Positions 1 to 62,726 of a DNA stretch of 63,511 bases are shown here, one piece after another. The DNA is taken from IMG/VR virus record IMGVR_UViG_3300025133_000099, positions 1-63,511 of that record; one strand, 5' to 3'. This DNA is from a virus. Its lineage: Duplodnaviria > Caudoviricetes. Each line of letters opens with the position of its first letter. The stretch's first letter is position 1. The translations under genes and the position numbers were made by a program. The notes under the pieces are model-generated. The model ran no database searches and was not told the origin of the DNA. It saw only the letters and a list, made by a program, of their open reading frames with translations.

Positions 1-716
1 AGGAGCATTTCGTTGGCGTACAGCGCCGATCTGGACGCTTCGTAGTGCGTGCCTATGCCCATCGCTTGCCGACGCTGTTGGCGGTCGAGTGCAAGTGTGT
101 GGCCTACGTCTCGGCATGCGTACTCGCCCTCAAGACCGACAGGTATTTCCGCGTGACCAAGCTCATCGAGGTATGCCCGTCGGGATTGTCGTCTCTCTTT
201 TGCCCGCGACTTTATCCAGTCTTCGACGGCGTCTTTCATTTCCAGTGAGTCACCGTAGGGCGACACGCCTAAAGCCATGACCACCTTCTCAAGCTGCTTA
301 GGCTGAAGCTCGTCGATCAAATACGCCTGAATCATCGTGTCGTGTAGCTGCGTCCAGCGTGGGACTTCCCAGCCGCCTGCGCGTGCCATGTTGATGTCAA
401 ACTTCAGGTTGTGCCCGACAAGGCTGCGAGCGCCTTTGAGCGCGTCTCTGAAGGCTGCACGCGCATTGTCTGGGTCTGCTTGGATCTCTGCGGTTCTGTG
501 CTCAACAGGGACGTACCAGCAGCGCGGCCTATCGCCGTTCCAGTAGCCTATGGAGAAACCTATGGGTAGTTGCCGATCCCAGTAGCGCAAGCCGCTTGTT
601 TCAAAGTCGAATCCAACGTCGGTAGCTGATTGCAACTCGCGCACCATCGCGGATAGCTCGTCAGGCGTATGGATAATGTGGTGACCGTCGCTCAATCTCG
701 GTGGCGCAACCATCAT
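1..716 (-). CDS. polA: Family A DNA polymerase, N-terminal 3'-5' exonuclease domain (runs off the left edge; not in the ORF track)
   Basis: My translation from ATG at 716 gives MMVAPPRL...VGFDFETSGL (ExoI)...LVGHNLKFD (ExoII)...HDTMIQAYLIDE...EYACRD (ExoIII). The frame is open to the edge, and the start overlaps the upstream stop (ATGA). Confidence 0.85.
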   Translation of the reverse strand, partial: MMVAPPRLSDGHHIIHTPDELSAMVRELQSATDVGFDFETSGLRYWDRQLPIGFSIGYWNGDRPRCWYVPVEHRTAEIQADPDNARAAFRDALKGARSLVGHNLKFDINMARAGGWEVPRWTQLHDTMIQAYLIDELQPKQLEKVVMALGVSPYGDSLEMKDAVEDWIKSRAKERRQSRRAYLDELGHAEIPVGLEGEYACRDVGHTLALDRQQRRQAMGIGTHYEASRSALYANEML

Positions 717-1069
717 GCTTCACCGCCGCGTATCCAGCCCAGCAGGGTGCCTCTGTACCCGTCGTCACCCATTGAGGCTGACAGGTGGTCTGGTGTCACC
801 TCAAGAACGCCTGAGCGTCCAGTAAGGTGCCCTACCAGTGATACTTCGACACCGTTGACGATCAAACGGATTTCACCAACAGGGTGTTCCCCGTCGTCGG
901 CTGCGAAAAGTGACAATGAGAACGTCCCAGCGGCAAGCAGTTTGTCCTCGCGTGGTGGAGCAGAACTCGACGACAATCCGCGCATGTCGAGAGATAGCGC
1001 CTGCTTGTCGCGAATGTCTTGACGGTCGATCTTCAAGTCGCCGTATTTCGTGCTGAGTATGTCTTTCAT
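713..1069 (-). CDS. Hypothetical protein (~118 aa, likely start MKDILSTK)
   Basis: AGGAG RBS at 1076-1080; ATGA coupling at both ends. Confidence 0.6.
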   Translation of the reverse strand: MKDILSTKYGDLKIDRQDIRDKQALSLDMRGLSSSSAPPREDKLLAAGTFSLSLFAADDGEHPVGEIRLIVNGVEVSLVGHLTGRSGVLEVTPDHLSASMGDDGYRGTLLGWIRGGEA

Positions 1070-1392
1070 CTTCGTCTCCTGCGTAGCTTGAAAAACCTGT
1101 TTCCTGATAGGCTCGCGTTTCCTGTTATTTTTCGTGCTACCGCTGACAATGTCTTGTATCTTTCGCCTTCGTAGATGTACCGCCACCAGCCCTTGTGCAT
1201 CTGCTGCGAGCCTGTGGGTTCGACGACGCTGACTGTGTACTCCTGACCATTCCAAGTCGTGCGTAGAACTGCCCCAGGAGCCAAGTCGATAGACGAATAG
1301 TCGACAGGTTGACCCGCCAGCATGTCGGTCACATCGACAGGTTCAGGAACGATTTTCGTTATGAAGAACTCAGGGCGAATGTCATGCTTCAT
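1066..1392 (-). CDS. DUF2924-like protein (likely start MKHDIRPE)
   Basis: PGAVLRTTWNGQEYTVSV...YEGERYKTLSAVARKITG...SGNRFFKL matches the DUF2924 pattern as I recall it; ATGA overlap with the upstream gene. Confidence 0.75.
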   Translation of the reverse strand: MKHDIRPEFFITKIVPEPVDVTDMLAGQPVDYSSIDLAPGAVLRTTWNGQEYTVSVVEPTGSQQMHKGWWRYIYEGERYKTLSAVARKITGNASLSGNRFFKLRRRRR

Positions 1393-1874
1393 GTTTTCGG
1401 CGGCCTTGCCCGCTTTCTCTTCTTCTCTTTGACAGGCTCCAAGGCTTCCAGCAGCGTGTCGACCACAATGCGCGGCGCTCCAAGCGGGTACAGCGTCTCC
1501 CCAGCCTTCAAGCGTGCGAGATACCCGTCGTCGATCTGCCAGCAGCGAGGCGCGAAAACACACCCACCACACAGCATTGTCGTCGGGTCGTACTCACCTC
1601 CAAAGCAGCGAGGCGCGTGTTCCACGGTTTCCGCACTGATACTGTTCGATTCAAGCAGTGTCTGGGCTTCTACTTCGGTGATCGGCTGCTGGTCTTGAAA
1701 CGCAGAAAGCCCCGCAGCTTCCAACTCTTGACGGGATTCGTCAGTCGCTGGTATAGCTGCGAGGCTTGGCAGTCGAGGATCGACTTGCTTTTTGGACATC
1801 AAACGGGAAAAATCCCGCTTGCCTTCACGGGACAACCCTTTGGCGATCCCACTTTTTGGAGCGTTGTCGGACAT
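1389..1874 (-). CDS. Hypothetical protein with Cys cluster (CFG...CGGC...RC), possible metal binding
   Basis: ORF packed into the operon; four-Cys motif. Confidence 0.6.
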   Translation of the reverse strand: MSDNAPKSGIAKGLSREGKRDFSRLMSKKQVDPRLPSLAAIPATDESRQELEAAGLSAFQDQQPITEVEAQTLLESNSISAETVEHAPRCFGGEYDPTTMLCGGCVFAPRCWQIDDGYLARLKAGETLYPLGAPRIVVDTLLEALEPVKEKKRKRARPPKT

Positions 1875-2487
1875 TATGCAAGACCTCTGGTGTGAGCATT
1901 TCTGCGTCTTGCATTTTCTCTATGCCGCACCGAGCCAAAAACTCCCTTGCTTTTTTCCGTGTGATGGAGATGTCGTTGTGAATACGCTTTGCTGTGATGC
2001 CCATGTCGACTGCGAGATCGACAAGCTTGTGACCTTCTGCCTTTGCCTTCATGACTGCATAGCTCTTTGGTGAAACAACGACTTCCACCGCTTTCGCCAC
2101 CTTGAAAAGTGCAACCTGTCGATTCTGGTCTTCAACGGGATTGTCGTCTACCATTAGCTGTGGAACTTCTCCGACATCGTCGATGTAGTCAGGCAATCGA
2201 CCGACTCGGTCTTGGGCCGTTTTACAGCTACGCCAAATCTTCAACTGGGCGCACCTCAGAGCGTGATTTATGAACCGTGAAGGCGGCTTGTCACTGTGCC
2301 CCTCAGCCCATGTCCTGCACGCCTTCACCACCTCAATCTGAAGCGTCTGGACTACGTCCTCAGTCGTCAAACCAGCATTTGCCAGCCCAAAAGTACGGCG
2401 TGCCATCGCTTCGCATTTACTCCGCGTCTCTGCCACCACAACGGCCTCCCAGCCTGACGGCTGAGAGGCTGATCTATATTCAGTCAT
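1825..2487 (-). CDS. RNA polymerase sigma-70 family (ECF-like) factor
   Basis: Region 2-like TTEDVVQTLQIEVVKACRTW...RFINHALR; region 4-like HTH EGHKLVDLAVDMGITAKRIHNDISITRKKAREFL. Confidence 0.75.
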   Translation of the reverse strand: MTEYRSASQPSGWEAVVVAETRSKCEAMARRTFGLANAGLTTEDVVQTLQIEVVKACRTWAEGHSDKPPSRFINHALRCAQLKIWRSCKTAQDRVGRLPDYIDDVGEVPQLMVDDNPVEDQNRQVALFKVAKAVEVVVSPKSYAVMKAKAEGHKLVDLAVDMGITAKRIHNDISITRKKAREFLARCGIEKMQDAEMLTPEVLHNVRQRSKKWDRQRVVP

Positions 2488-4634
2488 CTTCCTGCTCCCA
2501 CTGCTTTTCGACTATACCCATTTGAGCGAATCAGCAACCCTGTAAGTTGCTTCAATACCGCGTCAGATAGACCGTCTGCATTGGACAACAGGACGTTTCC
2601 GCTTGCTGCTCGGTTGCGCGTGGGTGCTACGTCTGGGTAGTAGGTCGCGAATGTTTCTGCATCGCGAATCTTGACCCCGATCCCGTAGACCTCAATCCCA
2701 GCGCGACAGACGCGATCAACAGTCTTTCGGAGGTACACGCCCTCAAGCTTGTGATCATCGGCCCCTGCTGGCAATCCGTCTGCAACAACCATGATTACAA
2801 TGCGATCAGCGTCACCTGCTTGCGCCGTGGCGTACTTCGCAGCTTCAAGAAGGCTCTCACCGTCAAGATTTGCACCAATCCCAGTAATCCGTGAGATAGC
2901 AGAACCATCGTCAGACAATCCAGGGGCTGAGACGAACTCCAACGTACAAAGCGCACTTGTCACTCGACTCCATTTCGGGATGTCGGTGTCTTTGTACGTC
3001 TCGTGCCTATCAGCGCGTACTTGGTGGTACTCAGCGTTAGTCAGTTTGTCACTGTCGATGCCCACAGACGTATATCCAAGGACAGCATGCGGCACCTGAC
3101 ACATCCTCAGCGCGTCATGCAGAACAGTTGCAGTCATCGCCGCGTAGCTCGCTTTGCTTCCAAGTGTCGGAACCAGCGTTTTACCACACAGTTCTTCGAG
3201 GTATCGGCTTTTCTTCTTACCGCACTTTGTCGCAGTCTTAGCAGATGACTGGCCATGAACTGGGCAGGATTTCGTCGAGATCCTGTTGGTTCCCATTGAT
3301 CCTGAGCAGTCAACAAGCACGCACACGAACGTGGATTCGTCCAAACGCTTGAACTTTCTACGGAAAATACGATTGTCGTCGGAACCAATGGCAAGCATCG
3401 GAAGCGAATCAGGGTCGATGTCGTCACCTTCATCAAGGCCACCTACCCACATCGTCTCTTTCATCGACTTCACCGCACAACGCATCTGGTTCGCCAGCTT
3501 CACGACCGCTGGGCCTGCTGCATCGCGCAACGTGCGCGTGTGCTTCTTGGCCTGCTTCCGTTCTTCAGGCGAGAACTTGCGCCACTCATCCGATTTGCGC
3601 GTAGCTGGGTGAATCGTGTACGGACGGTTGTTGACATCTTGGCAGAACTTACTGCTGACGACATCTGCTGCCGAATCGGGTTCGCCCCATTCATCGTCCT
3701 CGTCGATGATGCTTTTCACCATGCTCCTGCCAGCTTTCGTCAGCAAGTCCTCATCCTCATCCTCATCCTCATCCTCATCCTCGTCCTCGTCCTCATCCTC
3801 ATCCTCGTCCTCATCCTCGTCCTCATCGTCAGCAGATGGATTGTCGTCTGCATCGTCTTCTTCGTCGTCATCAGGCGGAGTCTCGTACTCGGTAGAAGCA
3901 CTACCCTTTTCACCCTTTTTAGTCTTAGAACGACGGCCTTCCTCAGCTTTTTCTTCTTCTGCCAACTCAGTGAGCCGTGCCCAAACAGCTTCCGCAGCTT
4001 CAGTAGCTTCGGCAGTGGTTTCTGCGTCCCAGCCCTGCTCGATTTGTAGACGACAATCCTCCATCAATGCACGAATGTCTGGGTCAATGTCAGCCATCGA
4101 CACAAAGCCGCTGTAAACACGCAATATCGCCTGTGTGAACGCGCCAAAGGCACCAATAGGGCTTCCGCCCTTTCCACAGAACTGAGGGTGGCACGGCGCT
4201 GCTCCGCCTGTGTCTCGGATGACCACCTCATTCATTGTCGCCAAGTGCTTTGCTGCCCCTGGATTCCGCGCACCGTAAGCACGCTCGATCCAAGCATCTT
4301 CAAAGACATTTGTAAGCCTCATCAGCTTGCCACTGTCGCACTGGCCGTGGCGAGACTTCCATTCTGCCAGCTTGTCGTCGATTAGCCCGCAATCGCTGAA
4401 CTGGACATGAGCGCACTCGTGGTCGAGTAGCCCCCGCCAAGAGTCCAGTTGCTCTTTGGACACATCAGCACCGTCGACACTGTAAGCAGGGACATGGAGC
4501 GTCTTCGACTTCCAGTTGTAGTAGGCTCCAGTCCCGCTGGCGACGACGTTGATGTCGCTGCGTCTCAGGATTCCTTTTGCTGTTCTCTCGGCAGCGTTTT
4601 CCAAACCCGCCATTCTGTTGTTTGCTTTAGACAT
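2484..4634 (-). CDS. CobT-like protein: N-terminal HExxH domain, acidic linker, C-terminal vWA domain
   Basis: LDHECAHVQFSD and NVFEDAWIE at the N-terminus; MIDAS VLVDCSGSM and VVADGLP; GGAGG RBS before MSKANN. Confidence 0.85.
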   Translation of the reverse strand: MSKANNRMAGLENAAERTAKGILRRSDINVVASGTGAYYNWKSKTLHVPAYSVDGADVSKEQLDSWRGLLDHECAHVQFSDCGLIDDKLAEWKSRHGQCDSGKLMRLTNVFEDAWIERAYGARNPGAAKHLATMNEVVIRDTGGAAPCHPQFCGKGGSPIGAFGAFTQAILRVYSGFVSMADIDPDIRALMEDCRLQIEQGWDAETTAEATEAAEAVWARLTELAEEEKAEEGRRSKTKKGEKGSASTEYETPPDDDEEDDADDNPSADDEDEDEDEDEDEDEDEDEDEDEDEDEDLLTKAGRSMVKSIIDEDDEWGEPDSAADVVSSKFCQDVNNRPYTIHPATRKSDEWRKFSPEERKQAKKHTRTLRDAAGPAVVKLANQMRCAVKSMKETMWVGGLDEGDDIDPDSLPMLAIGSDDNRIFRRKFKRLDESTFVCVLVDCSGSMGTNRISTKSCPVHGQSSAKTATKCGKKKSRYLEELCGKTLVPTLGSKASYAAMTATVLHDALRMCQVPHAVLGYTSVGIDSDKLTNAEYHQVRADRHETYKDTDIPKWSRVTSALCTLEFVSAPGLSDDGSAISRITGIGANLDGESLLEAAKYATAQAGDADRIVIMVVADGLPAGADDHKLEGVYLRKTVDRVCRAGIEVYGIGVKIRDAETFATYYPDVAPTRNRAASGNVLLSNADGLSDAVLKQLTGLLIRSNGYSRKAVGAGR
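3748..3826. repeat. Hexamer tandem repeat (TCCTCA/TCCTCG)n encoding a poly-(DE) tract
   Basis: Seen directly; translates as DEDEDE... in the CobT-like linker. Confidence 0.9.
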
Positions 4635-5523
4635 TTGAGCCTCCATGCTCTTGATTGTTGATTGCTTCGGACGTTCCGATGTAGATAGGCGGCCCGCTTG
4701 GAGCGCCGTGCTCGTCGTCTCCGAAATACCAAATAAGGGATTTACTCAGGATTTCGGAGTCTTGTGGGACATTCGCAACGATTGTCGCGTACATGTTGTT
4801 GTTGTTTAGTATTCGCCCTGTGGCCAACACTGGCTCTGTGCCATCTCCGTAGATTTCACCCAAAGCGAACACTTCCACGAGTGCAACGGCACTCGCGGCC
4901 TTGGCCTCTTTAGCGTGAGACGACGAATGGAAAGCTCGCAGCTTCGTCTTCCCGTCGTCGGCAAGAACCTCGTTTTCGACCTTCTCTTGCATTTTCTGCT
5001 TCCGCCGCCGCCTCTTTGCCCTGCGACGGGCTGCAAAGTCGTCGGTCGACCCTCCAAACGGATTGTCGTCTGCCAACTCAGCAGTTGCTTCGGCTACGGG
5101 TTCACCAAAAGGCGAGACTGTCTCCCGCCCTTCGAGGTTCTCGATACATAGGACACCGTTGTAAACAGTCTCCCAACCATCGACACCACCTACTTCTTCC
5201 TGTACCAGACGCTTCAGCATCTTCCGCGCAGCGGCCTCGACCACGAAGGACTGGGGGTGCTCTTTACAGCGCAAAAGCGTCTCAGAATAGATGACCTCCC
5301 CGTTCTTGTCTGCGTCTGCAAGCCGTGGCAGCAGCCGATTTATTTCATCGGCTGACCTTGTCGTATAGGTTTTGAATAGGCGCGTGCCGTGTCCCACGGC
5401 TGTTTGAACAACGAACGCGCCAAATGCCTTTGTGTCTCGATGAAAAAAGCATTCGGCAACCTTGACAACGCCGCCGACACCCTCTGGTTTTAGTTTATCT
5501 ATGGTACGTTTTCGTGGTGCCAT
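4627..5523 (-). CDS. Hypothetical protein (~298 aa, likely start MAPRKRT) with Arg/Lys patch
   Basis: Start lies immediately after the AAA gene stop; contains RRRAKRRRRKQK. Confidence 0.65.
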   Translation of the reverse strand: MAPRKRTIDKLKPEGVGGVVKVAECFFHRDTKAFGAFVVQTAVGHGTRLFKTYTTRSADEINRLLPRLADADKNGEVIYSETLLRCKEHPQSFVVEAAARKMLKRLVQEEVGGVDGWETVYNGVLCIENLEGRETVSPFGEPVAEATAELADDNPFGGSTDDFAARRRAKRRRRKQKMQEKVENEVLADDGKTKLRAFHSSSHAKEAKAASAVALVEVFALGEIYGDGTEPVLATGRILNNNNMYATIVANVPQDSEILSKSLIWYFGDDEHGAPSGPPIYIGTSEAINNQEHGGSNV

Positions 5524-5524
5524 T

Positions 5525-6583
5525 TTAGTCTTCCTCGATTGCAAAGACGCGACGGATAACTTCCGAGATCGCATCGCGTTCAACACTTGATTTCTGCTTG
5601 TTTAGAAACGCAGCGGATGCCGCGTTCAGGATGTGCAAGTCGTCAGCCATCTCGTCTGCGTGTACGATGTCGCCATTCGCGTGCTGGAGTCCAGCAGCGA
5701 CCCGTCGTGCCCAGTCAATGACCATGCGTGTCGAGAAGCCTGATCCGACCTCTGACGACTCACGAATGCCGTTTGCTACGCGCACCATGCCTTCAAGATC
5801 GCCGCTGTCGATGCCTTTGACCTTGCTGGCAACGGCGCAATGCTCATCTTTTTCGGCCATATAGCCGACTTCGATCAGACTACCGAAACGGTCAAGCAAG
5901 GCGCTGTTCACATCAGGATTCGTCCCGCTATACTCAAAACGTGCTTCCTCCATTGCCGCGCCGATGGTGTTGTCCGTGGCAAAGATTCTAAAATCTTTAT
6001 GGCGGCGAACGTACCTTGGAGGCTGTGCATCTTCGAGCAGGACAGCGCCTGTCGGTTCCAAGATCGGAAACAGTGACAGCGCCACTGGTGGTGTTGCACC
6101 GCTGACTTCGTCCAACAGCAGCCAGCCGCCAGCTTCCATCGCCATCGTCGCGATTCCAGGGACGTAGATTGTCTTCCCGTTCTGCGCTCCAACGCGACCT
6201 TTCAGGTGGCGTACCGTCGTGCCGACATTCAGGTTCGTGCGGAACACTGGCACATTGCAGCGAGCAGCGATCTGAATGACCAACGATGTCTTGCCAGAAC
6301 CTTTCGGGCCTGTCAGCAGACAAGGTGTCCAGTCGCCTTGATCGTGCGGCCATACGGCCCATGCGAACTCGCGAACCATCTCTGCACGAAAGACGTAAGA
6401 GGGGTCGATCTCTGGGACGGCTGCGCGTTCAAGCTCATCGCCTGCGGCATTGAAATAGCTCGCTCGGAACAAACGAACGTCGATGCCGTCAATCTGGAAG
6501 GGCGTCCACTTTGTTTCGACGATCTTATTGTCGTCTGGTGTTGTAGGGGTTTTTGCTTTCGGGGGTGATTTACGAGTTGCCAT
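5525..6583 (-). CDS. MoxR-clade AAA+ ATPase (CobS/CbbQ/NirQ-like)
   Basis: Walker A GPKGSGKT, Walker B LLLDE, FATDNT, ALLDRF, GFSTR; N-terminal VPEIDPSYVF is typical of CobS-like proteins. Confidence 0.9.
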   Translation of the reverse strand: MATRKSPPKAKTPTTPDDNKIVETKWTPFQIDGIDVRLFRASYFNAAGDELERAAVPEIDPSYVFRAEMVREFAWAVWPHDQGDWTPCLLTGPKGSGKTSLVIQIAARCNVPVFRTNLNVGTTVRHLKGRVGAQNGKTIYVPGIATMAMEAGGWLLLDEVSGATPPVALSLFPILEPTGAVLLEDAQPPRYVRRHKDFRIFATDNTIGAAMEEARFEYSGTNPDVNSALLDRFGSLIEVGYMAEKDEHCAVASKVKGIDSGDLEGMVRVANGIRESSEVGSGFSTRMVIDWARRVAAGLQHANGDIVHADEMADDLHILNAASAAFLNKQKSSVERDAISEVIRRVFAIEED

Positions 6584-6725
6584 TTTGTTGTGCCTCCATG
6601 CACTGAGTTGTTGGTCGCATCGAGGATTCGATAGCGACGATGTTGCTGGTGAAGGGAAAGGGACTTCCCTTCACCAACTATACGAAAACGACAATCAGCT
6701 TTAGTGCCATTGTCGTCTAAGATTT

Positions 6726-7784
6726 TTACCAATCGAGATCGGTACAAGCATCGGCCTTTTTCGGGCCAGCCGAAAGACGCCTTTCAACGTCCCTAACCAT
6801 CGTTTTGTTGTAGCCGTACACCGAGTCATAGCCGATATTACGGTCTTTGAAATAGGCAACCCGATTGCGTTCTCCAATCTCCAAAACCGCTGCGTGTTTT
6901 ACCAGCCAGTCGTCCCAGAACTTCTGAATGAGCCTCGTCGGATCATTCGCGAGTGCCTTTTCGTACTCGACCCGCATGCTGCGGATCTCCCGTAAAAGTC
7001 GACCGTCAGCCGTCCAGCGTAGGTGCTCGCCATCGGAATCCTTCACGGAGTTCCACACCTCGTAGCTTCGCTGCGCGGTCAAGCACCCATTCTTGTCGTA
7101 ATACTTCACGACTGCGCGACACTGCTTTCCGACCGACCGCTGGAGATCCCGCCAACCGTAGTATCCCCCCGCCACATGCTGAGACAGGTTCCAGCTTAGG
7201 TGGGCTTTGCAGAGACGCGCACCTTCGCGGATTTCGTCAATGACGGCTTCGTGGTCAGGGTGCAGCTTCAGCCAAGCTGCGCTTGACTGCTTGCGCTTCG
7301 ATCCTGTCATGACCTTTCGGAGAAGGGTCAAAGCCTTCTCCGCTGTGGCCTCGCCATCGACGACAATCCCGTATTTCTGGATGCAGGTTGAGCCTGTCCA
7401 GATGGTGTTGCCATTTGAGTTTTCCAGGGGGAACTCAAATCGGTTGTGCTTATGCCCGCACAGACGACAATCGACTGAGTGGACGCCACTCATGTGCCAA
7501 TCTCGGAAATCGGCGCGTGAGTAGGGATACGCCCAATCGCGCATTTTGCTGGTGTCGACTTCCCACTCAGCCAGAGCCTTTTGGCACAAGTCGTCGTCGA
7601 CATGGCCGTAGATTTGCTGAAGCTCAGGGTCTGTCAGGCGCGATTGCTTCCAATCGACGGCGATTAGCTTTTCGATTGCCATTCGCAAATCTGGTGGCGT
7701 GGCAGTCGATTTGTGCAGGATGTTGAGAGTTACGCGGAAAGAATGATTATCCGCTGGGACGTTGTTGATTGTTGCAATAGCCAT
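6726..7784 (-). CDS. Hypothetical protein with putative Zn-binding motif
   Basis: CRLCGHKH...TGSTCI; GGAGG RBS before MAIATIN. Confidence 0.65.
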   Translation of the reverse strand: MAIATINNVPADNHSFRVTLNILHKSTATPPDLRMAIEKLIAVDWKQSRLTDPELQQIYGHVDDDLCQKALAEWEVDTSKMRDWAYPYSRADFRDWHMSGVHSVDCRLCGHKHNRFEFPLENSNGNTIWTGSTCIQKYGIVVDGEATAEKALTLLRKVMTGSKRKQSSAAWLKLHPDHEAVIDEIREGARLCKAHLSWNLSQHVAGGYYGWRDLQRSVGKQCRAVVKYYDKNGCLTAQRSYEVWNSVKDSDGEHLRWTADGRLLREIRSMRVEYEKALANDPTRLIQKFWDDWLVKHAAVLEIGERNRVAYFKDRNIGYDSVYGYNKTMVRDVERRLSAGPKKADACTDLDW

Positions 7785-7801
7785 GTGAGCCTCCATGCTC
7801 T

Positions 7802-7835
7802 AAAAGAAAGCCCTACCCCCATGGCGGAGGGTAGG
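7802..7835 (-). terminator. Putative intrinsic terminator
   Basis: Minus strand reads CCTACCCTC-CGCCAT-GGGGGTAGG followed by GCTTTCTTTT. Confidence 0.55.
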
Positions 7836-7860
7836 ACGGGATACCACCGTCGCGGTATTA

Positions 7861-8610: not shown

Positions 8611-8611
8611 T

Positions 8612-8854
8612 TTAGCCTCCTGCTTGTTCAAGATTTGACCATGTCAAATCGGTTGAAGGAACCCAGCCGTGGGTTCCTTTCGATTGTTCGTCCCAGACTA
8701 CAAGCCAACGGACTCGGCCTGACGCGGCTTGATCCGATTGCACGCAGCTACCACTACCGTGTACGGCGTGAAAGCAGCGCATAGCGTTCGCTGGAACTGC
8801 TGGGACTTCAGGTGTCGGTTGTACGACAACTGAAGATCGTTTTTGAGCATCCAT
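8612..8854 (-). CDS. Small hypothetical protein, possibly SH3-like (HGSGSCV...LVVWD...GWVPSTDL)
   Basis: AGGAG RBS at 8861-8865. Confidence 0.55.
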   Translation of the reverse strand: MDAQKRSSVVVQPTPEVPAVPANAMRCFHAVHGSGSCVQSDQAASGRVRWLVVWDEQSKGTHGWVPSTDLTWSNLEQAGG

Positions 8855-8886
8855 GCTGTCCTCCTGTGCAAAGGGGATTATCCCCC

Positions 8887-11877: not shown

Positions 11878-11884
11878 GGATCAG

Positions 11885-12376: not shown

Positions 12377-12381
12377 TATTA

Positions 12382-12418
12382 CCTCCGCAGATAGCTATGC
12401 CCGACCATTCAAAAACCT
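12382..12418 (-). promoter_or_regulatory. Repeated promoter/leader motif AGGTT-N12-GGCATAGCTATCTGCGGAGG (copy 1)
   Basis: Near-identical copy with the same spacing at 14354-14390. Confidence 0.6.
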
Positions 12419-12433
12419 ATCGGAAAACTTCAG

Positions 12434-14348: not shown

Positions 14349-14353
14349 CAGTT

Positions 14354-14390: not shown

Positions 14391-14406
14391 CACAAACTTT
14401 GTGTGC

Positions 14407-14443: not shown

Positions 14444-14468
14444 AGAGATGTTCAGCACAGATGGTCAG

Positions 14469-55949: not shown

Positions 55950-56968
55950 GCCGCACCCTCATCTTCGTCAGGGAACAGTTCGCCGCCTGCTCCGACAATG
56001 CTGGGTGCGGCCTTTCCGCTGCTCCAGCCGTCAGGCATGACGAGGTAGTTTGGCAGGCGAATCAACGCGCAAGCGCAATACGGGTGCAGTGGGCCGATGA
56101 CTGGCTGCCAGTCGGCACGCTTTCGACCGACGTTCGTACCGTTGCCCGATAGCTCGTCAAGGACGAAAATGCGTGGAGCGCCACCCTCAAGGTGCTGCTC
56201 AACACAATGCTTGCAGGCGTCAGGCTTAGGCAGCTTGTACGCAAGGATCTGGAAAGCTGGCCGCTTTTCGGCTTGAGCCGCCTCCGCTTCTACTTCTTCC
56301 CACCCTGCACGCAGACCCTCATTCCAAGCCTCCTGTGATTCGGTCTGGACGATTCGCGTCCAGTCGCGTGCCCAGTCCTTCGTCGCGTGGCCCAGATCGC
56401 TCCGAACCCGACCAAGCGTCGAACGAAACTCGTTATCGAAAAAATCGTCACCCAAGCCGAGATCGACGCCACGGGCTTTCATCCGTTTAGCTGCGTCGTC
56501 ATCGCCGAACTTTGCCGCCACAGCGTCTTTGATCGTCAAGCGCATCTTATCCTCAAGAGCGCGATCCGCGTTGACGAGAATGCGGCCCGTCGCTGCTTCA
56601 ACACGGTTTCCAAGGCCACGAACGAATGTCGCTGCGCGGGCGTTAGCTGCATCAGCGGCTTTGCGCTCAGTGCGCGTCATTGGCGTTGTGTGGCGTTTGA
56701 TTTCGTCCACCCACTCAGCAGCGGTCGTTCCGTAGCGGCTGTACTGCTGCGCGTGGTCAAGGTGCGCGAGAAAGCTCCCGAACATCGAGAGGTTCGCAGC
56801 TATTGCTTCTTTTGAAGCTTTCGGGTCGACAAACCCCAGAGCAACTGCCAGATCCCATTCTTCTTTGCTTACAGCGTCTTTACCATAGACGGTAGCTGCA
56901 ACAGCGCCATGATAGCGTTTGAGAATGTCTTGAACCTCTCGAATCGTGCTGGGGGTGAGAATGAACAT
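55946..56968 (-). CDS. MuF/SPP1 gp7-like minor head protein
   Basis: RIVQTESQEAWNEG, ACKHC, GPLHPYCAC. Confidence 0.8.
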   Translation of the reverse strand: MFILTPSTIREVQDILKRYHGAVAATVYGKDAVSKEEWDLAVALGFVDPKASKEAIAANLSMFGSFLAHLDHAQQYSRYGTTAAEWVDEIKRHTTPMTRTERKAADAANARAATFVRGLGNRVEAATGRILVNADRALEDKMRLTIKDAVAAKFGDDDAAKRMKARGVDLGLGDDFFDNEFRSTLGRVRSDLGHATKDWARDWTRIVQTESQEAWNEGLRAGWEEVEAEAAQAEKRPAFQILAYKLPKPDACKHCVEQHLEGGAPRIFVLDELSGNGTNVGRKRADWQPVIGPLHPYCACALIRLPNYLVMPDGWSSGKAAPSIVGAGGELFPDEDEGAA

Positions 56969-56975
56969 TCCGTGT

Positions 56976-57290
56976 TCACTTTCGGTTTTTAGGCAGTGGT
57001 GAATCCCCGATAGTATTCCGATCTAAGGCGACAATCACAGCGAGCGTTTCGCGCACCCACTGCATGTCGGTCTGAAGCCCCTGAACATACAGTCTGATCT
57101 CAGAGACGGTCGCAGCTTCCTGAGTGCTTCTTTCCTCCAGAACAGCCATCTTTCGTGACAAACTCTGGAGTTCCTCGTGGTCTTTGGCACGGTCTGAGAC
57201 AAGCTGCTTTACAAAGAACCCGACAATGGCAAGCAAAAGGCCAAATACGATGTCGAAAGCCCATGCGATTATGGGTAGATCACTTTCCAT
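56976..57290 (-). CDS. Membrane-anchored coiled-coil protein (likely start MESDL)
   Basis: N-terminal TM segment followed by heptad repeats. Confidence 0.6.
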   Translation of the reverse strand: MESDLPIIAWAFDIVFGLLLAIVGFFVKQLVSDRAKDHEELQSLSRKMAVLEERSTQEAATVSEIRLYVQGLQTDMQWVRETLAVIVALDRNTIGDSPLPKNRK

Positions 57291-57609
57291 TTGTTCGCCC
57301 CCGTAGTTCATCGCGGTCGACGCTCTCATAGGCGGCTTGGAGGACGGTTCTGATCTCCGACAGAGCAAGACTCATAGCTGTGTCGTAGACTTCGTTCGCC
57401 TCGTCAATAGCTTCTTGGATGACACGATACTTTGGCTTCTGGCGAACTGGGACGCTTACGCGCTTTGCCCCAGCCGCCTTAGCCAGATTGTCCAACCACA
57501 CAGCACGATCCTCGCCTTCAGCCTCCGCGATTGTCGCCAAAGCATCGACGACAATCTCTGGATCTTCAGCGAGAAGTCCATGCGGAAGTGTGAAGGATAG
57601 GTGTGCCAC
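57280..57609 (-). CDS. Hypothetical helical protein
   Basis: Operon position; contains LAKA. Confidence 0.55.
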   Translation of the reverse strand: MAHLSFTLPHGLLAEDPEIVVDALATIAEAEGEDRAVWLDNLAKAAGAKRVSVPVRQKPKYRVIQEAIDEANEVYDTAMSLALSEIRTVLQAAYESVDRDELRGRTNGK

Positions 57610-57632
57610 TCGGCCCCCTGTAAAGAGAGCGA

Positions 57633-58181
57633 TTAGCCGTTGAACGAACCTTCAGTCGTGTGAAGTCCACCGTTGAATCCAACGGAAATGTCACCAAATC
57701 CACTGCGTTCTTCGTTGTCCACAGTCAGTGTTTCAGCGGCTGCGCCAGTTTGCTCAACCTTGATGTCACCGATCCGAACAAACTCAGCGGTTCCGAGAGA
57801 AGATTCGATCTCAGCAGTGGTCATCTTGTCAGATGCTCCTGCCCAGACGACTGTGATCACAGCAGATCCGCTGGAGCAGTCGAACACGATGTGGGCATAG
57901 TTGGTAGCCGCTTCTTCGTCGCCGTTATCCCAAGTACCACCAGCAGCGGGAGCGCCCGTGAGAGTAGCAGCAGCTTCGTAGACCGTACCGCTGGGGCAGA
58001 TCATGATACTGGCGGGTGTGGCAATCGACAGGGTCGTTTCCCAACTGGATGTACCCGTGGGTGTGCTGCCATCGGCAAGAAGACCGTAGCCCTCGCATCG
58101 TCGGTAGTTGAGTTTGGCTGAGTTGTTGACGGCGTCAAGAACCTTGCCGCTTTGGGCTGCGAGAAGTGAGGGAGTACCCAT
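57633..58181 (-). CDS. Hypothetical, probably virion protein
   Basis: AGGAG RBS; T/G/A-rich beta composition. Confidence 0.6.
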   Translation of the reverse strand: MGTPSLLAAQSGKVLDAVNNSAKLNYRRCEGYGLLADGSTPTGTSSWETTLSIATPASIMICPSGTVYEAAATLTGAPAAGGTWDNGDEEAATNYAHIVFDCSSGSAVITVVWAGASDKMTTAEIESSLGTAEFVRIGDIKVEQTGAAAETLTVDNEERSGFGDISVGFNGGLHTTEGSFNG

Positions 58182-58213
58182 TTGAAATCTCCTGAAAGAA
58201 AAGGGGGGGTGAT

Positions 58214-59974
58214 TTATAGATCGATTTCGTATCGAACGATGCGGGAAGTAGGTGGTCGACTATCCGCTGACAACTCTAAACCGATTTGGTCGGACTTTGC
58301 AACCATTGATCCCTGATTGTCGTCTGCTTCGGCTGCTGGTTCGCCCCCAACATCTTGATTGTCCTCGTCAGCAAGGCTGAGATCATGCGCTTCATCATCA
58401 AACTGATCGTCAGGATCTTCGTATTCCTCGTCGCCATAGCCGTCGTCTTCCCCACCTTCAGCGTCCTCGTCGGCCATAGCTTCTTGCGACTGGATGTATT
58501 GTAGCCATGTCGGATCAAGGATGACATCACCCTTACCGTCTCCCATAGGCTCAAGCCCAACGAAATGTCGTGCTTCGTCGACAGTCATGTAGATTTTGGT
58601 CTGCTTCTGAAGCAAGTCCGTTTCCGCGTCAGGGCCGCGCTGATCAAGACCGATGGGAACAGCCTCGAACGCGGGGTCGATAACTTGCAAAAAATGCTTG
58701 TTGATGCAGTCGAAAAACCAGTAGACGAGTGGGCGCAGACCGAGATCACGAGAAGCCTTCAGCTTTTCTTCGATAGGAGCCTGCCCCATCGCCTGTGATT
58801 GCCCGCTGTTACCGTAGGAAAAGTTGACCTCTTCTGGAGCGATCTGGTAGCGGGCGCAGACGATCTTGATCAAAAAATCCATCCATGCGCCCATCTCCAT
58901 GTCCTTGTTGGACATTTGCATATTGATCCACTGAAGTTCCTCTGCGTTTGTGATGGGTGTGCGCCAGCTATTGTGTACCCCGGCGACCATTGCGTACCAT
59001 TGTCGTCTAAAGCTCTGAAGGTGTTTGTCGGGAATCGTGCCCTTGAAGTTCAGGATTCCTTTCGTGCTTGACCCTTGTGAGAAAAATCGGCGGTTGTACT
59101 CGATACCCCAAAGAAATCCAGTGATCTCGCGAACAAGAGTTTCAAGCTCTGACAGCCCGTACCCGTAGCTACGGATTCCGCTTCGTGGATTCCTGATGCA
59201 GAAAGCCATTTCGTCTGAAGTAAAGTCGGCGACAATACTGCCATGAACGACTTGAACGGCGAAAGGCTTTCCCTTTTCTTGAACAGCAGGATCGAGAAGG
59301 CGGATTGTCGTTGGGTCTACAATCGAAATGTACGAAGGCTTGCCCTTCTTGTCAGGGACAAGCTCGAAACAGGCTTGGTCATACGTCAGCGAATCGCGAA
59401 TGAACATTCCGCAGAACTCTCGGAGACTGACAAAGTCCTTGGTGTTCTTACCGTCAACATAGCCCGTGTGCAGTAGAACATGCTCAAGCTCGTCGCAGCG
59501 TGCTTGCGTCTTTTTATCGATCTTACGGGTGCGATCTCGCGGGCGCACCTTGAACCCAGGACTGTACCGATCTTCTGGACGCTGGCAGAATGTTTGGGTT
59601 TGCGTCATTCGCGTCCTGATGACATCGGCAAGAACTGGGACACCCTGCGCTGTGGACTCCATCGCACTGAATGACAGTTGACTTGGGCGCTCTCGCCAGC
59701 CCATGAGCGACACGAGATCAAACGGGTCAAAGCTGATCGCTTTGGGGTCGGCTGCCGCGTCGTGAGAAGCGTCGAACGTATGCGTGCCGTCCTTCCCCAT
59801 CGCCTTAGCCATTGAAGCGGCTTTGTTGATGTTGTCGTCGAAATCACGCACTTTGCGGTCATTGTCGCGTTCTTCAGCCCAGCCGCTCAGTCGATCCGCG
59901 CCTTCACGGACAGCGGTAGAAGCAGCGGAGGTTGCCGCTTCTGCTGCGGCCTTGATGTCGTCACGAATCCCCAC
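58214..59974 (-). CDS. Portal protein (SPO1/Twort-like)
   Basis: IRDSLTYDQACFE, VDPTTIR, RNPRS...YGLSELE, FFSQG...KGIL, FRRQW, DLGLRPL, TVDEAR. Confidence 0.92.
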   Translation of the reverse strand: MGIRDDIKAAAEAATSAASTAVREGADRLSGWAEERDNDRKVRDFDDNINKAASMAKAMGKDGTHTFDASHDAAADPKAISFDPFDLVSLMGWRERPSQLSFSAMESTAQGVPVLADVIRTRMTQTQTFCQRPEDRYSPGFKVRPRDRTRKIDKKTQARCDELEHVLLHTGYVDGKNTKDFVSLREFCGMFIRDSLTYDQACFELVPDKKGKPSYISIVDPTTIRLLDPAVQEKGKPFAVQVVHGSIVADFTSDEMAFCIRNPRSGIRSYGYGLSELETLVREITGFLWGIEYNRRFFSQGSSTKGILNFKGTIPDKHLQSFRRQWYAMVAGVHNSWRTPITNAEELQWINMQMSNKDMEMGAWMDFLIKIVCARYQIAPEEVNFSYGNSGQSQAMGQAPIEEKLKASRDLGLRPLVYWFFDCINKHFLQVIDPAFEAVPIGLDQRGPDAETDLLQKQTKIYMTVDEARHFVGLEPMGDGKGDVILDPTWLQYIQSQEAMADEDAEGGEDDGYGDEEYEDPDDQFDDEAHDLSLADEDNQDVGGEPAAEADDNQGSMVAKSDQIGLELSADSRPPTSRIVRYEIDL

Positions 59975-59976
59975 GG

Positions 59977-60258
59977 CTATTCCTTATTCGGGTTCAAGCC
60001 CGTCATCGGGTTCATTAGCCTACCGTTGGGAAAGCGTGGAACTGGGTCAATAGGTGGATTACCCATGTGCGGATCGGTGCCCATGTCGATGTTTCTTGGC
60101 TTCGCAGCGGGCGCTGCGCCTGTGCGACGAACCGTCGCTGGATTCTCAATGGCAACACCACTGTCGTGGTAGGTCACGCTTCCGATCTTGTAGCTGTCTA
60201 CTGGCTTCTTTTCTGATTGCTTGATCATGTCAAGAACGCTCATTTTCGTATCACTCAT
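59977..60258 (-). CDS. Hypothetical Pro-rich protein
   Basis: Coupled to neighbours. Confidence 0.55.
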   Translation of the reverse strand: MSDTKMSVLDMIKQSEKKPVDSYKIGSVTYHDSGVAIENPATVRRTGAAPAAKPRNIDMGTDPHMGNPPIDPVPRFPNGRLMNPMTGLNPNKE

Positions 60259-62726
60259 TTGTCGCCTCCTGCGTACATAGCTCGAATATGCGGTGCATAC
60301 TCCATATTCATATTTGAATGTTTTGTTTCAGATTTGAAAGTTTTAGATTTCGACATGTCCTGATCTTGGACGACAATCGACTTTTTCACAGCGCCAGCAG
60401 CGTGATCTGCCATCTGGTGGTAGTAGTCGCCCGTTTCTTTCGCTGTTGGGTGCGACATGTATTGCTTCATCGCGCTGTGGTATTCCTCGCCTTTAGGGGT
60501 GTGGTAGTTGTCACCCTGCGTGCGTAGGTGCCTTTCAAAATCAGGCTTGGTTTCTCCACTGGCGTCAAGATCCATGCGGGCGCTATGCGTACCGTCGGGA
60601 TGCGTCATGGTGATCGAGGTTTTTCGGTAGCCGCCTCCTGGGTCTGCGGCGACAATCCCAGCGAGTGCGCTGTTTAGGTCTTCGACGTTGTCAAACTCCA
60701 AGCCCTCGTGGGTGCCCATACGGGCACCACGTTCATTGAGGCGGTCACCCAGCTTGCCTTCGTGGTCGTCGATCTTGAACTTGACTTTAGACTCTTTCTT
60801 GGGAAGGTCTGACAGCCTTCCAGTAGTGGAAACAGCAGCGGCGTGGGTGGCGCGTTCCATGTTTGGCAGATTCCTGTGCAGTCTGGATGGGTCGCGACCA
60901 GACGCTTCATGTACTCGACTCAGTTGGTCATGGTAACGCCCTGCCGAGTTGTGCTTTGCAGCTTCTTCCCACTTACCTTCCCCCTGAAGCTGATCGGACA
61001 ACGCCCATTTGTGATCGGCGCGAGCGTTGTGTTCCGCTGCCGCCTCTTTATGATCGTCTTCCGACCAGCCGACAGTGTGGTCGCGAAAGTTGGATTGAGA
61101 TAGGAAAGCCATCTTCTTTCCTGACGCGGTATTTCCCACCGAATGGGTATCGCCGCGCTTGTTGGCGGGTGCCTTGGTGCTTTCAACAGCTTCCGCTGCT
61201 TCGGTGTGTGCTTGCTTGAGTTTGCGGGCATCACGCAAAGCGTGGTTTGCGTTTGACACATCATACTTCTCAGGCCCACCGTACCTGAACTTACCCAACT
61301 TCATTGCGCCGTGGGCTTCTGCCATTTTTCCATGGTATTCCGACTCGTACTTGTGGGCAAAATAAGCATTTGAATCTTTGCGAGCGTCCATCTTCTTTGC
61401 ATGGGCCTCGTACATCAGCTTCGAGTGCTTCTTAGCTAAAGCGTGGTGCTCGTCCTCAGTCGTGTCCTTGTGATCGTTGTGCCAACCCTTCTCAGTCCCG
61501 CCGTGTGCGTGCTTGCGTTGGCGGGAGGCTGTCTTGCCGTCCTTCCACGCGATGGTGTGATCACTGTCTGCCCACTTGCCTCCGCGTTTTCCGATGAATG
61601 GCCCGCCGCCTGCTTTGAGCAGATCGGGATTGTCGTCTACTGATTTCGTTAGCCCTTGCCGCTTGAAATCCCTGTATATTTCCATCGACATAACAGGGTC
61701 TGTTGCAGTGTACTCAAAGAGGTTTTCCGCATCTGGGTCATTCACCTCATCTTTGATTTCAGCGACTGAAACTCCGTAGTGGTTAGCCACATGATTCAGG
61801 ATCTTTGTCCTCTTCGCGGCTGGTAGGCTGTCGAGATACTTCGCGTTCGCGTGTTCCTTGCTCGCGGTCTTGTCCTCCCACTTTGTAGCTTGGTCATAGG
61901 GTGACGATCCTCCACTCATGATCTGCGATGCGTGGTGCTTTGCAGACTCCAGAGTGTTGTGGCCACTGACAGTCGGGTCGCTGTGCGCCCCGCCTGCGTA
62001 GTCTGAGGTTCCCTGCTTTGCTGAATCCCACGACTGCTCGATGCTGTGCCCTTGGGCTTCTCCGTTCTTGTCTACATGAGCGACGACCTTGACCTCTTGC
62101 CCTCGGCTTGATCGGTGATGGCTGATGACTTTCTTATCAAGCTTGCGAACCTTTGCTTGCTTGGCGTGGTGTTCATCCCAGTGAGCGTCGTGGTGTGCTA
62201 CGGCCTCTTTTCGATTCTTTTCTGCCAGCTTATACATCGCTGCTTGCTCGGCACCATCACCGCGTAGTGCGGCCTCTGAAGCCATCCGCATAGCGTTGTG
62301 GTGCGCCATTTCGGAAGCAAGCATGTTGTCGTGGTGGCTATTGTCGCCTTTGAAACCCTCAAGGTGCTCGTCGCGTTTATTCTGGTGATGAACCACCAGC
62401 GCGTCATGCCTCTCTGGGCCGATGTGCATACGGTCGCCTCGCGCTGTCTCGCGTCCGTCATGCGAGTGATTGTGCTCGTCATCGACCTTCCCACGCTTGT
62501 AGCTGTTCTGATCTGGATACCAGTAGTCCCAGCCGCCTTTCGCGTTTCGTTTCCGCATCCCGTGGTTGCGGGTCTTGGGCACAGGTGTCCAGCCCGACGC
62601 CTTCTGAAGATCAGGTTCGCGCCCTTCGAGACGCGCCAGCTTATTGTCGTCAAGTGCTTGGGCTTTTCTCACACCTCGATGGTGTGCTTCTGCGCCTTTG
62701 ACCAAGTCAAGTAGCTCGTTACTCAT
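60255..62726 (-). CDS. His-rich modular protein, putative internal head protein
   Basis: Roughly one residue in ten is His by eye; DLxK(A/G) linkers; GGWDYWYP module. Confidence 0.65.
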   Translation of the reverse strand: MSNELLDLVKGAEAHHRGVRKAQALDDNKLARLEGREPDLQKASGWTPVPKTRNHGMRKRNAKGGWDYWYPDQNSYKRGKVDDEHNHSHDGRETARGDRMHIGPERHDALVVHHQNKRDEHLEGFKGDNSHHDNMLASEMAHHNAMRMASEAALRGDGAEQAAMYKLAEKNRKEAVAHHDAHWDEHHAKQAKVRKLDKKVISHHRSSRGQEVKVVAHVDKNGEAQGHSIEQSWDSAKQGTSDYAGGAHSDPTVSGHNTLESAKHHASQIMSGGSSPYDQATKWEDKTASKEHANAKYLDSLPAAKRTKILNHVANHYGVSVAEIKDEVNDPDAENLFEYTATDPVMSMEIYRDFKRQGLTKSVDDNPDLLKAGGGPFIGKRGGKWADSDHTIAWKDGKTASRQRKHAHGGTEKGWHNDHKDTTEDEHHALAKKHSKLMYEAHAKKMDARKDSNAYFAHKYESEYHGKMAEAHGAMKLGKFRYGGPEKYDVSNANHALRDARKLKQAHTEAAEAVESTKAPANKRGDTHSVGNTASGKKMAFLSQSNFRDHTVGWSEDDHKEAAAEHNARADHKWALSDQLQGEGKWEEAAKHNSAGRYHDQLSRVHEASGRDPSRLHRNLPNMERATHAAAVSTTGRLSDLPKKESKVKFKIDDHEGKLGDRLNERGARMGTHEGLEFDNVEDLNSALAGIVAADPGGGYRKTSITMTHPDGTHSARMDLDASGETKPDFERHLRTQGDNYHTPKGEEYHSAMKQYMSHPTAKETGDYYHQMADHAAGAVKKSIVVQDQDMSKSKTFKSETKHSNMNMEYAPHIRAMYAGGDK

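Follow-up and report, generated by a model that had tools for sequence, protein, structure and literature searches.

Chi, the DNA uptake sequences (DUS) and uptake signal sequences (USS), the FtsK-orienting polar sequences (KOPS) and the stoperators are among the few cases in which a short DNA signal shapes a whole genome. To our knowledge, all dense, intragenic recognition words used in both orientations that have come to light so far belong to bacterial chromosomes. Chi, which occurs about once per 4.5 kb in E. coli, is defined by a host enzyme (RecBCD or AddAB), and the host genome holds an excess of copies with a strand skew; reading goes in one direction, and DNA with Chi counts as self and is spared exonucleolytic degradation. 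DUS and USS lie in the chromosomes of naturally competent bacteria, where they are read by an uptake receptor (ComP or an equivalent). Stoperators, of which there are about 25-35 per genome, are asymmetric sites of ~13 bp that are read by the phage-encoded repressor of temperate phages as a monomer. The DUS of Neisseriaceae are described together with their dialects (PMC3630211), and the stoperators of Cluster A mycobacteriophages as motifs that are similar but not identical between genomes and that predominantly take one orientation relative to transcription (PMC6550527; see also PMC9283540). Here, we analyse a 10-bp word, GACGACAATC, that recurs throughout IMG/VR record IMGVR_UViG_3300025133_000099, a linear marine phage sequence of 63,511 bp (CheckV completeness 68%); the whole of this record is referred to below as the window. 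An earlier note, made from the letters of the window alone, had likened the word to DUS and USS and had set it apart from stoperators and from the HIP1 word of cyanobacteria.

The motif is a "watermark" of one uncultured marine phage clade that is distantly like SPO1, and it has an invariant 7-bp core, CGACAAT (ATTGTCG on the opposite strand). The likeness to DUS and USS was borne out by the statistics of the word: as in those systems, the word is asymmetric, ~10-12 bp long, present at ~1 per kb in both orientations, mostly intragenic and evenly spaced, its position is kept between relatives, its dialects are 1-2 bases apart, and it occasionally forms hairpin-capable inverted pairs. Unlike DUS and USS, it reaches ~1 per kb in no bacterial genome searched, and a phage has no uptake step. 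With Chi it shares the form of a short asymmetric word of ~14-16 bits, and the principle by which Chi works is the one that we propose for it below; it is several times denser than Chi in E. coli, and the phage has recombination genes of its own. Like stoperators, it is phage-specific, asymmetric, spread genome-wide and variable among relatives. The distinction drawn from them is sound nonetheless, as the word does not follow their orientation rule: all genes are on the minus strand, yet orientation is nearly balanced (33/25 for the 10-mer and 75/62 for the core), and almost all of the 137 cores in 63.5 kb are intragenic. HIP1 resembles it as a hyper-abundant short word in coding DNA with lineage variants and a suspected link to a methyltransferase, but HIP1 is palindromic and chromosomal whereas the phage word is asymmetric and phage-confined; GACGACAATC is not its own reverse complement, and GCGATCGC occurs 0 times in the window. 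We found no description of a phage-owned genome-wide word in the literature searched, which did not cover supplementary files, and, among the papers listed for the word itself, only primer-like occurrences. If it served as the private identity code considered at the end, it would be a virus-owned counterpart of Chi or DUS, for which we know of no precedent.

GACGACAATC has 58 exact matches in the window, 25 on the plus and 33 on the minus strand, and every coordinate given for it in the earlier note is exact. It is the commonest 10-mer of the window, and its core is the commonest 7-mer, with 137 copies (62 plus, 75 minus) or about 2 per kb on both strands and ~1 per 0.9 kb on each strand. The "dozens more" copies of the core that had been mentioned thus amount to 79 besides the 58 full 10-mers. 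Open reading frames (ORFs) were taken from a greedy set of 59, of which 54, including all long ones, are on the minus strand. These minus-strand ORFs contain 55 of the 58 copies, and the other 3 fall outside the ORF set. The copies are listed below; a line with coordinates and strand only is an exact match to GACGACAATC.

1..63511, core CGACAAT, 137 copies, 62 plus and 75 minus, 128 in minus-strand ORFs
184..193, minus
969..978, plus
2139..2148, minus
3371..3380, minus
3839..3848, minus
4049..4058, plus
5061..5070, minus, exact match outside the ORF set
6689..6715, convergent pair of cores downstream of the minus-strand gene 6726-7796 (11-37 nt from its stop codon), with TTT next on the coding strand
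7359..7368, plus
7463..7472, plus
8220..8229, minus
9031..9040, plus
9097..9106, minus
9554..9563, plus
9719..9728, plus
10422..10431, plus
11186..11195, minus
12923..12932, plus
13308..13340, convergent pair of 10-mers (13308 plus, 13331 minus), 13-nt spacer, within the DEAD/ResIII helicase gene
14628..14637, plus, exact match outside the ORF set
15890..15899, minus
16166..16175, plus
18139..18148, minus
18350..18359, plus
18932..18941, minus
19461..19470, minus
20794..20803, minus
21879..21888, plus
22529..22538, plus
23777..23786, minus
24720..24729, minus
26312..26321, minus
27427..27436, plus
29812..29821, minus
30895..30904, plus
32320..32329, minus
32589..32598, minus
33040..33049, plus
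33658..33667, minus, GACGACAATC in a convergent pair with the core copy at 33649 (plus)
35957..35966, plus
37097..37106, plus
37223..37232, minus
38651..38660, minus
38870..38879, minus
43453..43473, head-to-head 10-mers (43453 plus, 43464 minus) 1 base apart, a 21-bp near-perfect palindrome
44432..44441, minus
45723..45732, minus
46576..46585, plus
47163..47172, minus
51066..51075, minus
53051..53060, minus
53983..53992, minus
54996..55005, plus
57547..57556, plus, exact match outside the ORF set
58315..58324, minus, GACGACAATC in the portal gene (read as DDNQ); relative L063 keeps the site as GACGACAAT
60369..60378, plus
61628..61637, minus

These numbers far exceed those of every null model used. 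Dinucleotide-preserving shuffles of the window (n = 100) contained a mean of 0.26 copies of GACGACAATC (standard deviation 0.48, largest 2), Markov models of orders 1-4 gave expectations of 0.22, 0.35, 0.91 and 3.76, and the word read backwards, which served as a control, has 0 copies. When synonymous codons were permuted within genes so that proteins and codon usage stayed fixed (300 shuffles), 2.89 ± 1.58 copies were obtained (maximum 7) against the 55 observed in ORFs, whereas shuffling the order of codons left 0.24 ± 0.49; the enrichment therefore persists under the codon-preserving shuffle under which the earlier note had considered that it might vanish. That the synonymous shuffle leaves ~10 times as many copies as the codon-order shuffle speaks for some amino-acid bias, but a by-product of codon or dipeptide bias or of a repeated peptide, or an adapter or assembly error, has a negligible chance of explaining 55 copies where 2.9 are expected, in six frames and in sequence that recurs in other runs and studies. 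Contigs of three further public marine runs, produced in other studies, agree with the first 20 kb to within 0-3 differences for each piece listed, and the motif stands at homologous positions in many independent contigs of related phages; these near-identical contigs and independent occurrences exclude an assembly or adapter artefact. The motif is a genuine DNA-level signal under selection.

The copies are read in all six frames, as had been noticed: in the sense frames as TTI (20), DDN (10) and RRQS (2) and in the antisense frames as IVV (13), GLSS (7) and DCR (3). Together with the synonymous shuffle and the portal alignment described below, this identifies a signal at the level of DNA and not a peptide motif or a by-product of codon usage. 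Positions 3-9 of the 10-mer (CGACAAT) hardly vary, each one-mismatch variant having 0-2 copies, and the outer positions are softer (position 1, G 58 and A 6; position 2, A 58 and G 12; position 10, C 58, A 9, G 9 and T 0). The flanks of the 58 copies (-2, T 25 and C 17; -1, A 25 and C 21; +1, C 27 and G 20) make the extended consensus proposed earlier, (T/C)GACGACAATC(C/G), roughly right. Around the 137 cores, the footprint runs from -4 to +7 (T, A/C, G, A/G, CGACAAT, C) and comprises ~12 bp and ~16.7 bits; no second element was found within ±80 nt of them. Minus-strand ORFs, which make up 95.8% of the window, contain 128 of the 137 cores, so intergenic DNA is not favoured.

T is missing at position 10 because AATT is banned genome-wide and not because of the signal itself. 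In the window, AATT occurs 0 times (138 expected), CTAG 0 (85), TTAA 0 (54) and CCGG 14 (171); 46 of the 64 hexamer palindromes are absent, against a summed order-1 Markov expectation of about 691. Other palindromes are at ordinary levels (AAGCTT 37, GTCGAC 41, TCGCGA 39, GATC 356). The avoided sets differ among relatives: G057 avoids ACGT (0 versus 60 expected), TTAA, AATT and CCGG, and G055 avoids CTAG (2 versus 109 expected), GAGCTC and GGATCC, while G054 does not avoid AATT. This palindrome avoidance suggests unmodified DNA that faces many type II restriction systems.

The cores are more evenly spaced than expected by chance. The coefficient of variation (CV) of the spacing of all cores in the window was 0.75 versus 0.99 ± 0.08 by chance, a value that none of 4000 simulations reached; irrespective of strand, neighbouring cores are at most 1,576 bp apart. 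On the separate strands, the CV was 0.76 and 0.79 (P about 0.01 each) and the largest gap about 3.1-3.3 kb; this per-strand regularity exceeds that obtained when strands were reassigned at random among these sites (0.87 ± 0.06, P = 0.04). In the relative G054, the per-strand CV was 0.82 versus 1.02 ± 0.07 after relabelling, with 0 of 3000 relabellings as low. Orientations also alternate above chance (z = 2.45 in the window and 3.40 in G054). Relative to the genes, all of which are on the minus strand, 33 copies of GACGACAATC are sense and 25 antisense, and 75 cores are sense and 62 antisense, in keeping with the little strand bias noted before. The convergent pair at 13308..13340 is also found in relatives L009, L011, L012 and L014. 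The core pair at 6689..6715, judged by its sequence and position, looks like a terminator, a role in which paired DUS can act.

We then compared the window with its relatives. Those at 65-70% nucleotide identity carry the same core at 1.1-3.2 per kb, with a G+C content of 0.55-0.62. In blocks aligned by blastn with nine relatives (G009 was dropped as 99.9% identical to G006, and one window site may count repeatedly), 35 of 73 window cores were intact at the same column versus 2,465 of 30,336 other 7-mers (8.1%), a retention that supports purifying selection on the motif. The remaining aligned sites had turned over, often with several differences; the earlier note had proposed to look for such turnover in orthologues. 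Sites in the portal gene show how the motif is accommodated: they are written by codon choice at a conserved RRQW (AGA CGA CAA TGG versus CGG CGC CAC TGG in distant relatives) and by substitution, with PTTI where relatives have S[A/D]TI. Across 29 genes, residues encoded by the core were identical to those of the motif-less relative G055 in 78 of 226 cases (34.5%) versus 5,096 of 11,795 (43.2%) for the others. Therefore, the signal costs some amino-acid freedom; besides codon choice, conservative amino-acid changes build it into coding DNA, a point that the earlier note had raised for checking.

The word has dialects. GACAAT is preceded by C in 137 of 156 cases in the window, 93 of 99 in G006, 99 of 111 in G054, 49 of 59 in G059 and 40 of 45 in G060, and by T in G057 (42/50) and G062 (13/16) and also in G056 and L190, where CTGACAAT is the usual form. 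G057 shows no avoidance of CGAC (249 observed, 230 expected), and therefore CTGACAAT is a changed signal and not the result of site avoidance. The part common to both dialects is GACAAT followed by a base other than T; T never follows the core in the window and in G057. A third variant, CGACAATTG, has 41 copies in 52.6 kb of G054, differs at position 10 and is partly palindromic; its difference tracks the AATT constraint (0 AATT in the window, 1 in G057 and 154 in G054).

A sister clade lacks the motif altogether. No dispersed word comparable to CGACAAT was found in G055, G058 (32.9 kb), L195 or L197. G055 is a complete genome of 98,094 bp with direct terminal repeats that shares most window genes at 30-63% amino-acid identity; it has 19 GACAAT only, without preference for the preceding base. 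In a tree of the capsid protein, the motif-less G055, G058 and L195 form a clade (support 100/99), and the CTGACAAT lineage falls among the motif-bearing ones, with G054 (80/84). None of 31 portal relatives at ≤49% identity has a dense core (0-3 copies each). Among 32 portal relatives inspected for lineage-specific motifs of their own, the top k-mers inspected, L063 aside, were tandem or clustered repeats (L064, L083, L084, L085, L089, L189), and those of L088 are in a single orientation within a repeated gene region and do not form a dispersed signal. In L083, L084, L085 and L064, in-frame tandem repeats with a period of 12-18 nt in structural-region genes dominate the k-mer tables and mimic motifs.

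The word is dense only in this one phage clade and in no cellular genome searched. We scanned for the pair GACGACAATC-N(0-30)-GATTGTCGTC, of which the window holds two and an equally dense genome would hold dozens; such scans would miss host signals that are sparse, strongly strand-skewed or made of the 7-mer only. One genome from each of 185,579 species yielded 48 stretches, each from a different genome and with one pair each, against a chance expectation of about 17 (our own calculation, assuming uniform composition). These stretches have ≤3 copies in up to 8 kb, and the 48 whole genomes have 2-75 copies, the densest being 20 in 1.0 Mb, or 0.02 per kb compared with 0.91 in the phage. Direct counts in a further 212 genomes (260 in total) gave 0-43 copies of GACGACAATC in 121 Alphaproteobacteria, including G102 (3 copies), to which we gave no weight, and 0-37 in 91 Verrucomicrobiota. 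The richest alphaproteobacterial genome, G164 (43 copies), was set aside, its copies being scattered over many contigs, with one tandem repeat in addition. In 241 million JGI metagenome records, 85 stretches match the pair pattern and five exceed the two seeded copies; the three dense ones match the clade members G008, G007 and G006 at 100% identity. Among 2.9 million IMG/VR contigs, the inverted-pair scan returned six, of which L009, L011, L012 and L014 have at least 4 copies and are clade members and the other two have the seeded pair only and no homology to the clade. The direct-pair scan returned 23, of which one, L241, is dense and belongs to the clade (79% terminase identity) and the other 22 are not dense.

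Genes of the window were assigned with Pfam, PHROGs and PDB sequence searches; all are on the minus strand. Those with an assignment are as follows.

3-716, minus, 3'-5' exonuclease portion of a family A polymerase that is truncated at the contig end
1825-2487, minus, ECF-type sigma-70-like factor of 220 aa without Pfam match, Atlas feature score 0.98
2484-4646, minus, CobT-type VWA protein
5525-6583, minus, CbbQ-type AAA ATPase
8887-10008, minus, Toprim primase
10005-11357, minus, DnaB-like helicase
12434-14098, minus, DEAD/ResIII helicase
22277-23890, minus, baseplate J
40598-42103, minus, SU10-type major capsid protein
43159-44160, minus, prohead protease
44763-52964, minus, protein of 2,733 aa, SNF2 helicase core, also a weak match to zincin peptidases
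53286-55949, minus, 887-aa protein with an N-terminal InPase domain
58214-59974, minus, portal

The closest isolates are SPO1-like Bacillus phages, with ~39% portal identity. No match to the window at the DNA level was found among 50,697 phage records, and the window has no tRNA genes. In the Atlas, the capsid protein falls in viral clusters only. Parts of the sequence occur in 15 public runs from 11 studies, 14 of them marine and one a hydrothermal-vent metagenome; the contigs of four of these runs show no pile-up of ends, although contigs would not be expected to reveal one. A relative that extends beyond the left end of the window encodes the rest of PolA and gp32-like, RecA/UvsX-like, Mre11-like and Rad50-like proteins, and a longer contig of the strain of that relative adds a 624-aa N6/N4 methyltransferase, ~30 small ORFs, the large terminase and, as judged by eye, a candidate RuvC-like protein. 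No pilin-like gene was found among the phage proteins scanned. The tandem repeat of CTTCCTCAG units at 8321-8361 (plus strand) coincides with breaks, loose ends and differing lengths in contigs of other runs, and its copy number is probably variable in the population.

Our preferred reading, which is tentative, is that the word acts as a phage-autonomous, strand-directional self-mark of the Chi kind that is read by the phage's own replication-recombination machinery; its directionality, its phage-encoded reader and its biochemical role are what we infer. Directional reading on each strand is proposed because of the per-strand regularity and the alternation of orientations, where these are present. 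The clade would run T4-style recombination-dependent replication with a UvsX/RecA recombinase, a gp32-like single-stranded DNA-binding protein, an Mre11/Rad50-like nuclease and a UvsW-like helicase. DNA ends would be resected until the motif was encountered in the right orientation, where resection would stop and the recombinase would be loaded. In phage DNA, resection from a break would meet a site after about 1-3 kb at most, whichever the strand, so that this DNA would be preserved and recombined, and host DNA, with one site per at least 50 kb in every genome searched, would be consumed. Alleles without the word would be degraded and recopied from alleles bearing it; the DUS-like statistics would follow because the motif would spread by its own drive. 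Support comes from the recombination genes of the left-extending relative and from the DEAD/ResIII helicase, the DnaB-like helicase and the Toprim primase in the window. The palindrome avoidance adds the context of a genome on which nucleases exert extreme pressure.

Several points weigh against such a self-mark. Most of these replication and recombination genes have orthologues in the motif-less sister clade too, and therefore they alone do not require the motif. No RecBCD/AddAB-type helicase-nuclease was found among the phage proteins scanned, with ~110 kb of clade sequence annotated, and we know of no Mre11/Rad50 complex that is regulated by sequence. The window represents only about 68% of the genome, and no reader of the motif emerged among the candidate genes singled out. 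Per-strand regularity is significant in two of five genomes and not significant in G006, G059 and G057. Finally, 54 close pairs (<60 nt), counted in ten partly homologous contigs and thus not independent, comprise 27 convergent ones, 9 divergent ones and 18 whose two members point the same way, where 1:1:2 is expected, a preference that a Chi-like model does not predict.

The regularity on each strand can also be read as a trace of lagging-strand synthesis. A Toprim primase of the DnaG/T7 type would start at template 5'-ATTGTC-3' and make pppACAAU, reading 3'-CTG-5' as the T7 primase does, while its zinc-binding domain would read the lineage-specific flanks and Okazaki spacing would be needed on both strands. 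Within the element common to the dialects (GACAAT and then any base but T) lies GAC, which is complementary to GTC, the site of the T7 primase. A density of ~1 site per 0.9 kb on each strand, gaps that reach at most about 3.1-3.3 kb on a strand, the regularity in the window and G054 and the presence of primase and DnaB-like helicase genes in the window all agree with this. Known primases read 3-5 nt, however, beside which a footprint of ~16.7 bits would be unprecedented; the excess of GACAAT on the sense strand (75 versus 62) goes the wrong way if forks follow transcription, and the motif-less clade has an orthologous primase (43% identity). We consider priming improbable, and place at about the same level a phage-encoded protein that, like the Cluster A mycobacteriophage repressor, would bind an asymmetric site in double-stranded DNA (dsDNA) as a monomer. 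Such a protein would cover the genome, silence it, compact it or shield it; the sites might, for instance, block translocating restriction enzymes or load the co-injected SNF2 protein. The 12-bp asymmetric footprint and the dialects, which vary among relatives as stoperators do, fit a dsDNA binder, and the convergent close pairs and the partly palindromic CGACAATTG hint at two protomers that face each other. On the other hand, orientation is not tied to transcription (33/25 and 75/62), intergenic DNA is not enriched (128/137 cores in ORFs covering 95.8%), the spacers of convergent pairs vary from -2 to 43 nt, and per-strand regularity would be unexpected for an orientation-blind binder. Nor did we find a repressor, an integrase or a helix-turn-helix (HTH) protein other than the sigma factor among the proteins scanned in the window (~68% of the genome, with many ORFs without family) and the annotated relatives.

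An origin in the host or in DNA modification has, in our estimate, still poorer prospects. The earlier note had suggested that the phage mimics a Chi-like or uptake signal of its host, which in this case would have been accumulated to escape RecBCD/AddAB after restriction. The 7-nt core and its information content are Chi-like, its GT-rich strand, GATTGTCG, resembles what we take to be the composition of Chi and KOPS words, and the palindrome avoidance points to extreme restriction pressure; Chi enrichment has been described in phages that rely on host recombination (PMC3784561). The searches, whose pair scans would miss a sparse or strand-skewed Chi, did not support this proposal: no dense cellular genome appeared among 185,579 species or 260 counted genomes, the 48 single-pair matches are on the order of chance (about 17) and come from genomes with at most 0.02 per kb versus 0.91, the counts are ≤43 in 121 Alphaproteobacteria and ≤37 in 91 Verrucomicrobiota, only 3 of 85 metagenome stretches are dense and all are identical to clade members, and no unrelated virus with a dense motif was found in two IMG/VR scans. 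The clade also encodes its own recombinase. Equally weak in our view is the idea that a DNA methyltransferase of the phage targets the word, which would then owe its enrichment to a drive from repair or conversion or would be a self-signal through its methyl mark, much as a link between HIP1 and a methyltransferase has been proposed in cyanobacteria. The motif-bearing G059 does encode a 624-aa beta-class N6/N4 enzyme (L216:720-2594, minus; G059 20720-22594), the core contains adenines, and the complete motif-less G055 has no homologue. The two catalytic halves of the enzyme (residues 5-111 and 514-605), one with DPPY and one AdoMet-binding, enclose a duplicated insert of ~430 aa at the position of target recognition, with the repeats …GRWP.N…H… and …VVD.WEC.EGCPVA.L.AQ.G…, which is possibly a tandem target-recognition domain. 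But the gene is known from a single contig (an IMG/VR scan gave no close relative, the next best having 30% identity), it sits in a hypervariable block of ~30 ORFs without homologues in other contigs, and we know of no mutational drive caused by N6-adenine methylation. GATC (356) and GANTC (282) are not avoided in the window, and the enzyme may simply protect such sites.

A transcription signal is disfavoured, as 45% of the copies are antisense and there is neither intergenic preference nor a partner element, and the density is far too high for a single-site function such as pac or an origin. For the reader that a Chi-like self-mark requires, candidates were chosen by presence or absence relative to the complete motif-less genome G055. 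The ECF-like sigma factor (1825-2487) has homologues in G059, G060 and G061 and none found in G055; it was set aside because the motif has no -35/-10 partner nearby and 45% of copies are antisense. The nearest Atlas clusters of this protein are mostly from Verrucomicrobiota and Planctomycetota, a weak hint at the host. At 14724-14972 lies a hydrophobic 82-aa protein that resembles membrane proteins or holins, and the 217-aa protein beside Rad50 in G059 looks by eye like a RuvC-type resolvase.

Neither did the proteins named as possible readers in the earlier note hold up. The SNF2 protein is also encoded by motif-less relatives, no DUF2924 domain was found in the proteins scanned, and the His-rich 823-aa protein (60255-62726, minus) is not conserved across motif-bearing lineages, since G057 matches it only in a 29-aa module. 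Homologues of the 887-aa head-region protein, as of the 2,733-aa one, occur in motif-less relatives as well, and both resemble the "polyvalent" injected proteins of phages; for the latter, the SNF2 helicase core was the sole strong outcome of comparisons with solved structures, Pfam and PHROGs. The 823-aa protein is rich in His, Lys and Asp and has no Pfam, PHROG or PDB match. Its conserved module (…DNPDL.KAGGPFIGPRGGKWAD…HTIAWKEGK…) is also present in proteins of 577-1,336 aa encoded on other large contigs, and the 29-aa stretch in G057 lies within the homologue of the InPase protein. Contigs of 94,846 and 98,770 bp are among those that encode homologues of the 823-aa protein.

A lytic-looking phage clade with a word of its own, dialects and a motif-less sister clade provides a natural control and a tractable system for the origin of such words, whether by selection or by molecular drive. 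The comparison of motif-bearing with motif-less members narrows the search for a new sequence-specific phage enzyme, and the word itself is a sequence marker for members and sub-lineages of an uncultured marine group in metagenomes. Together, the motif and the extreme avoidance of restriction sites amount to non-coding, DNA-level information that is layered on coding sequence. It is possible, if rather doubtful, that the word is a private identity code, in which a phage enzyme system (a nuclease/recombinase, primase or translocase) is productive only on the 7-12-bp word of its clade, and we are similarly reserved about calling this a categorically new, virus-owned self-recognition system. If the identity code were real, the replication-recombination machinery would tell its own genome from those of the host and of competing phages, and the dialects CGACAAT, CGACAATTG and CTGACAAT would represent identity groups that conflict among phages drives apart.

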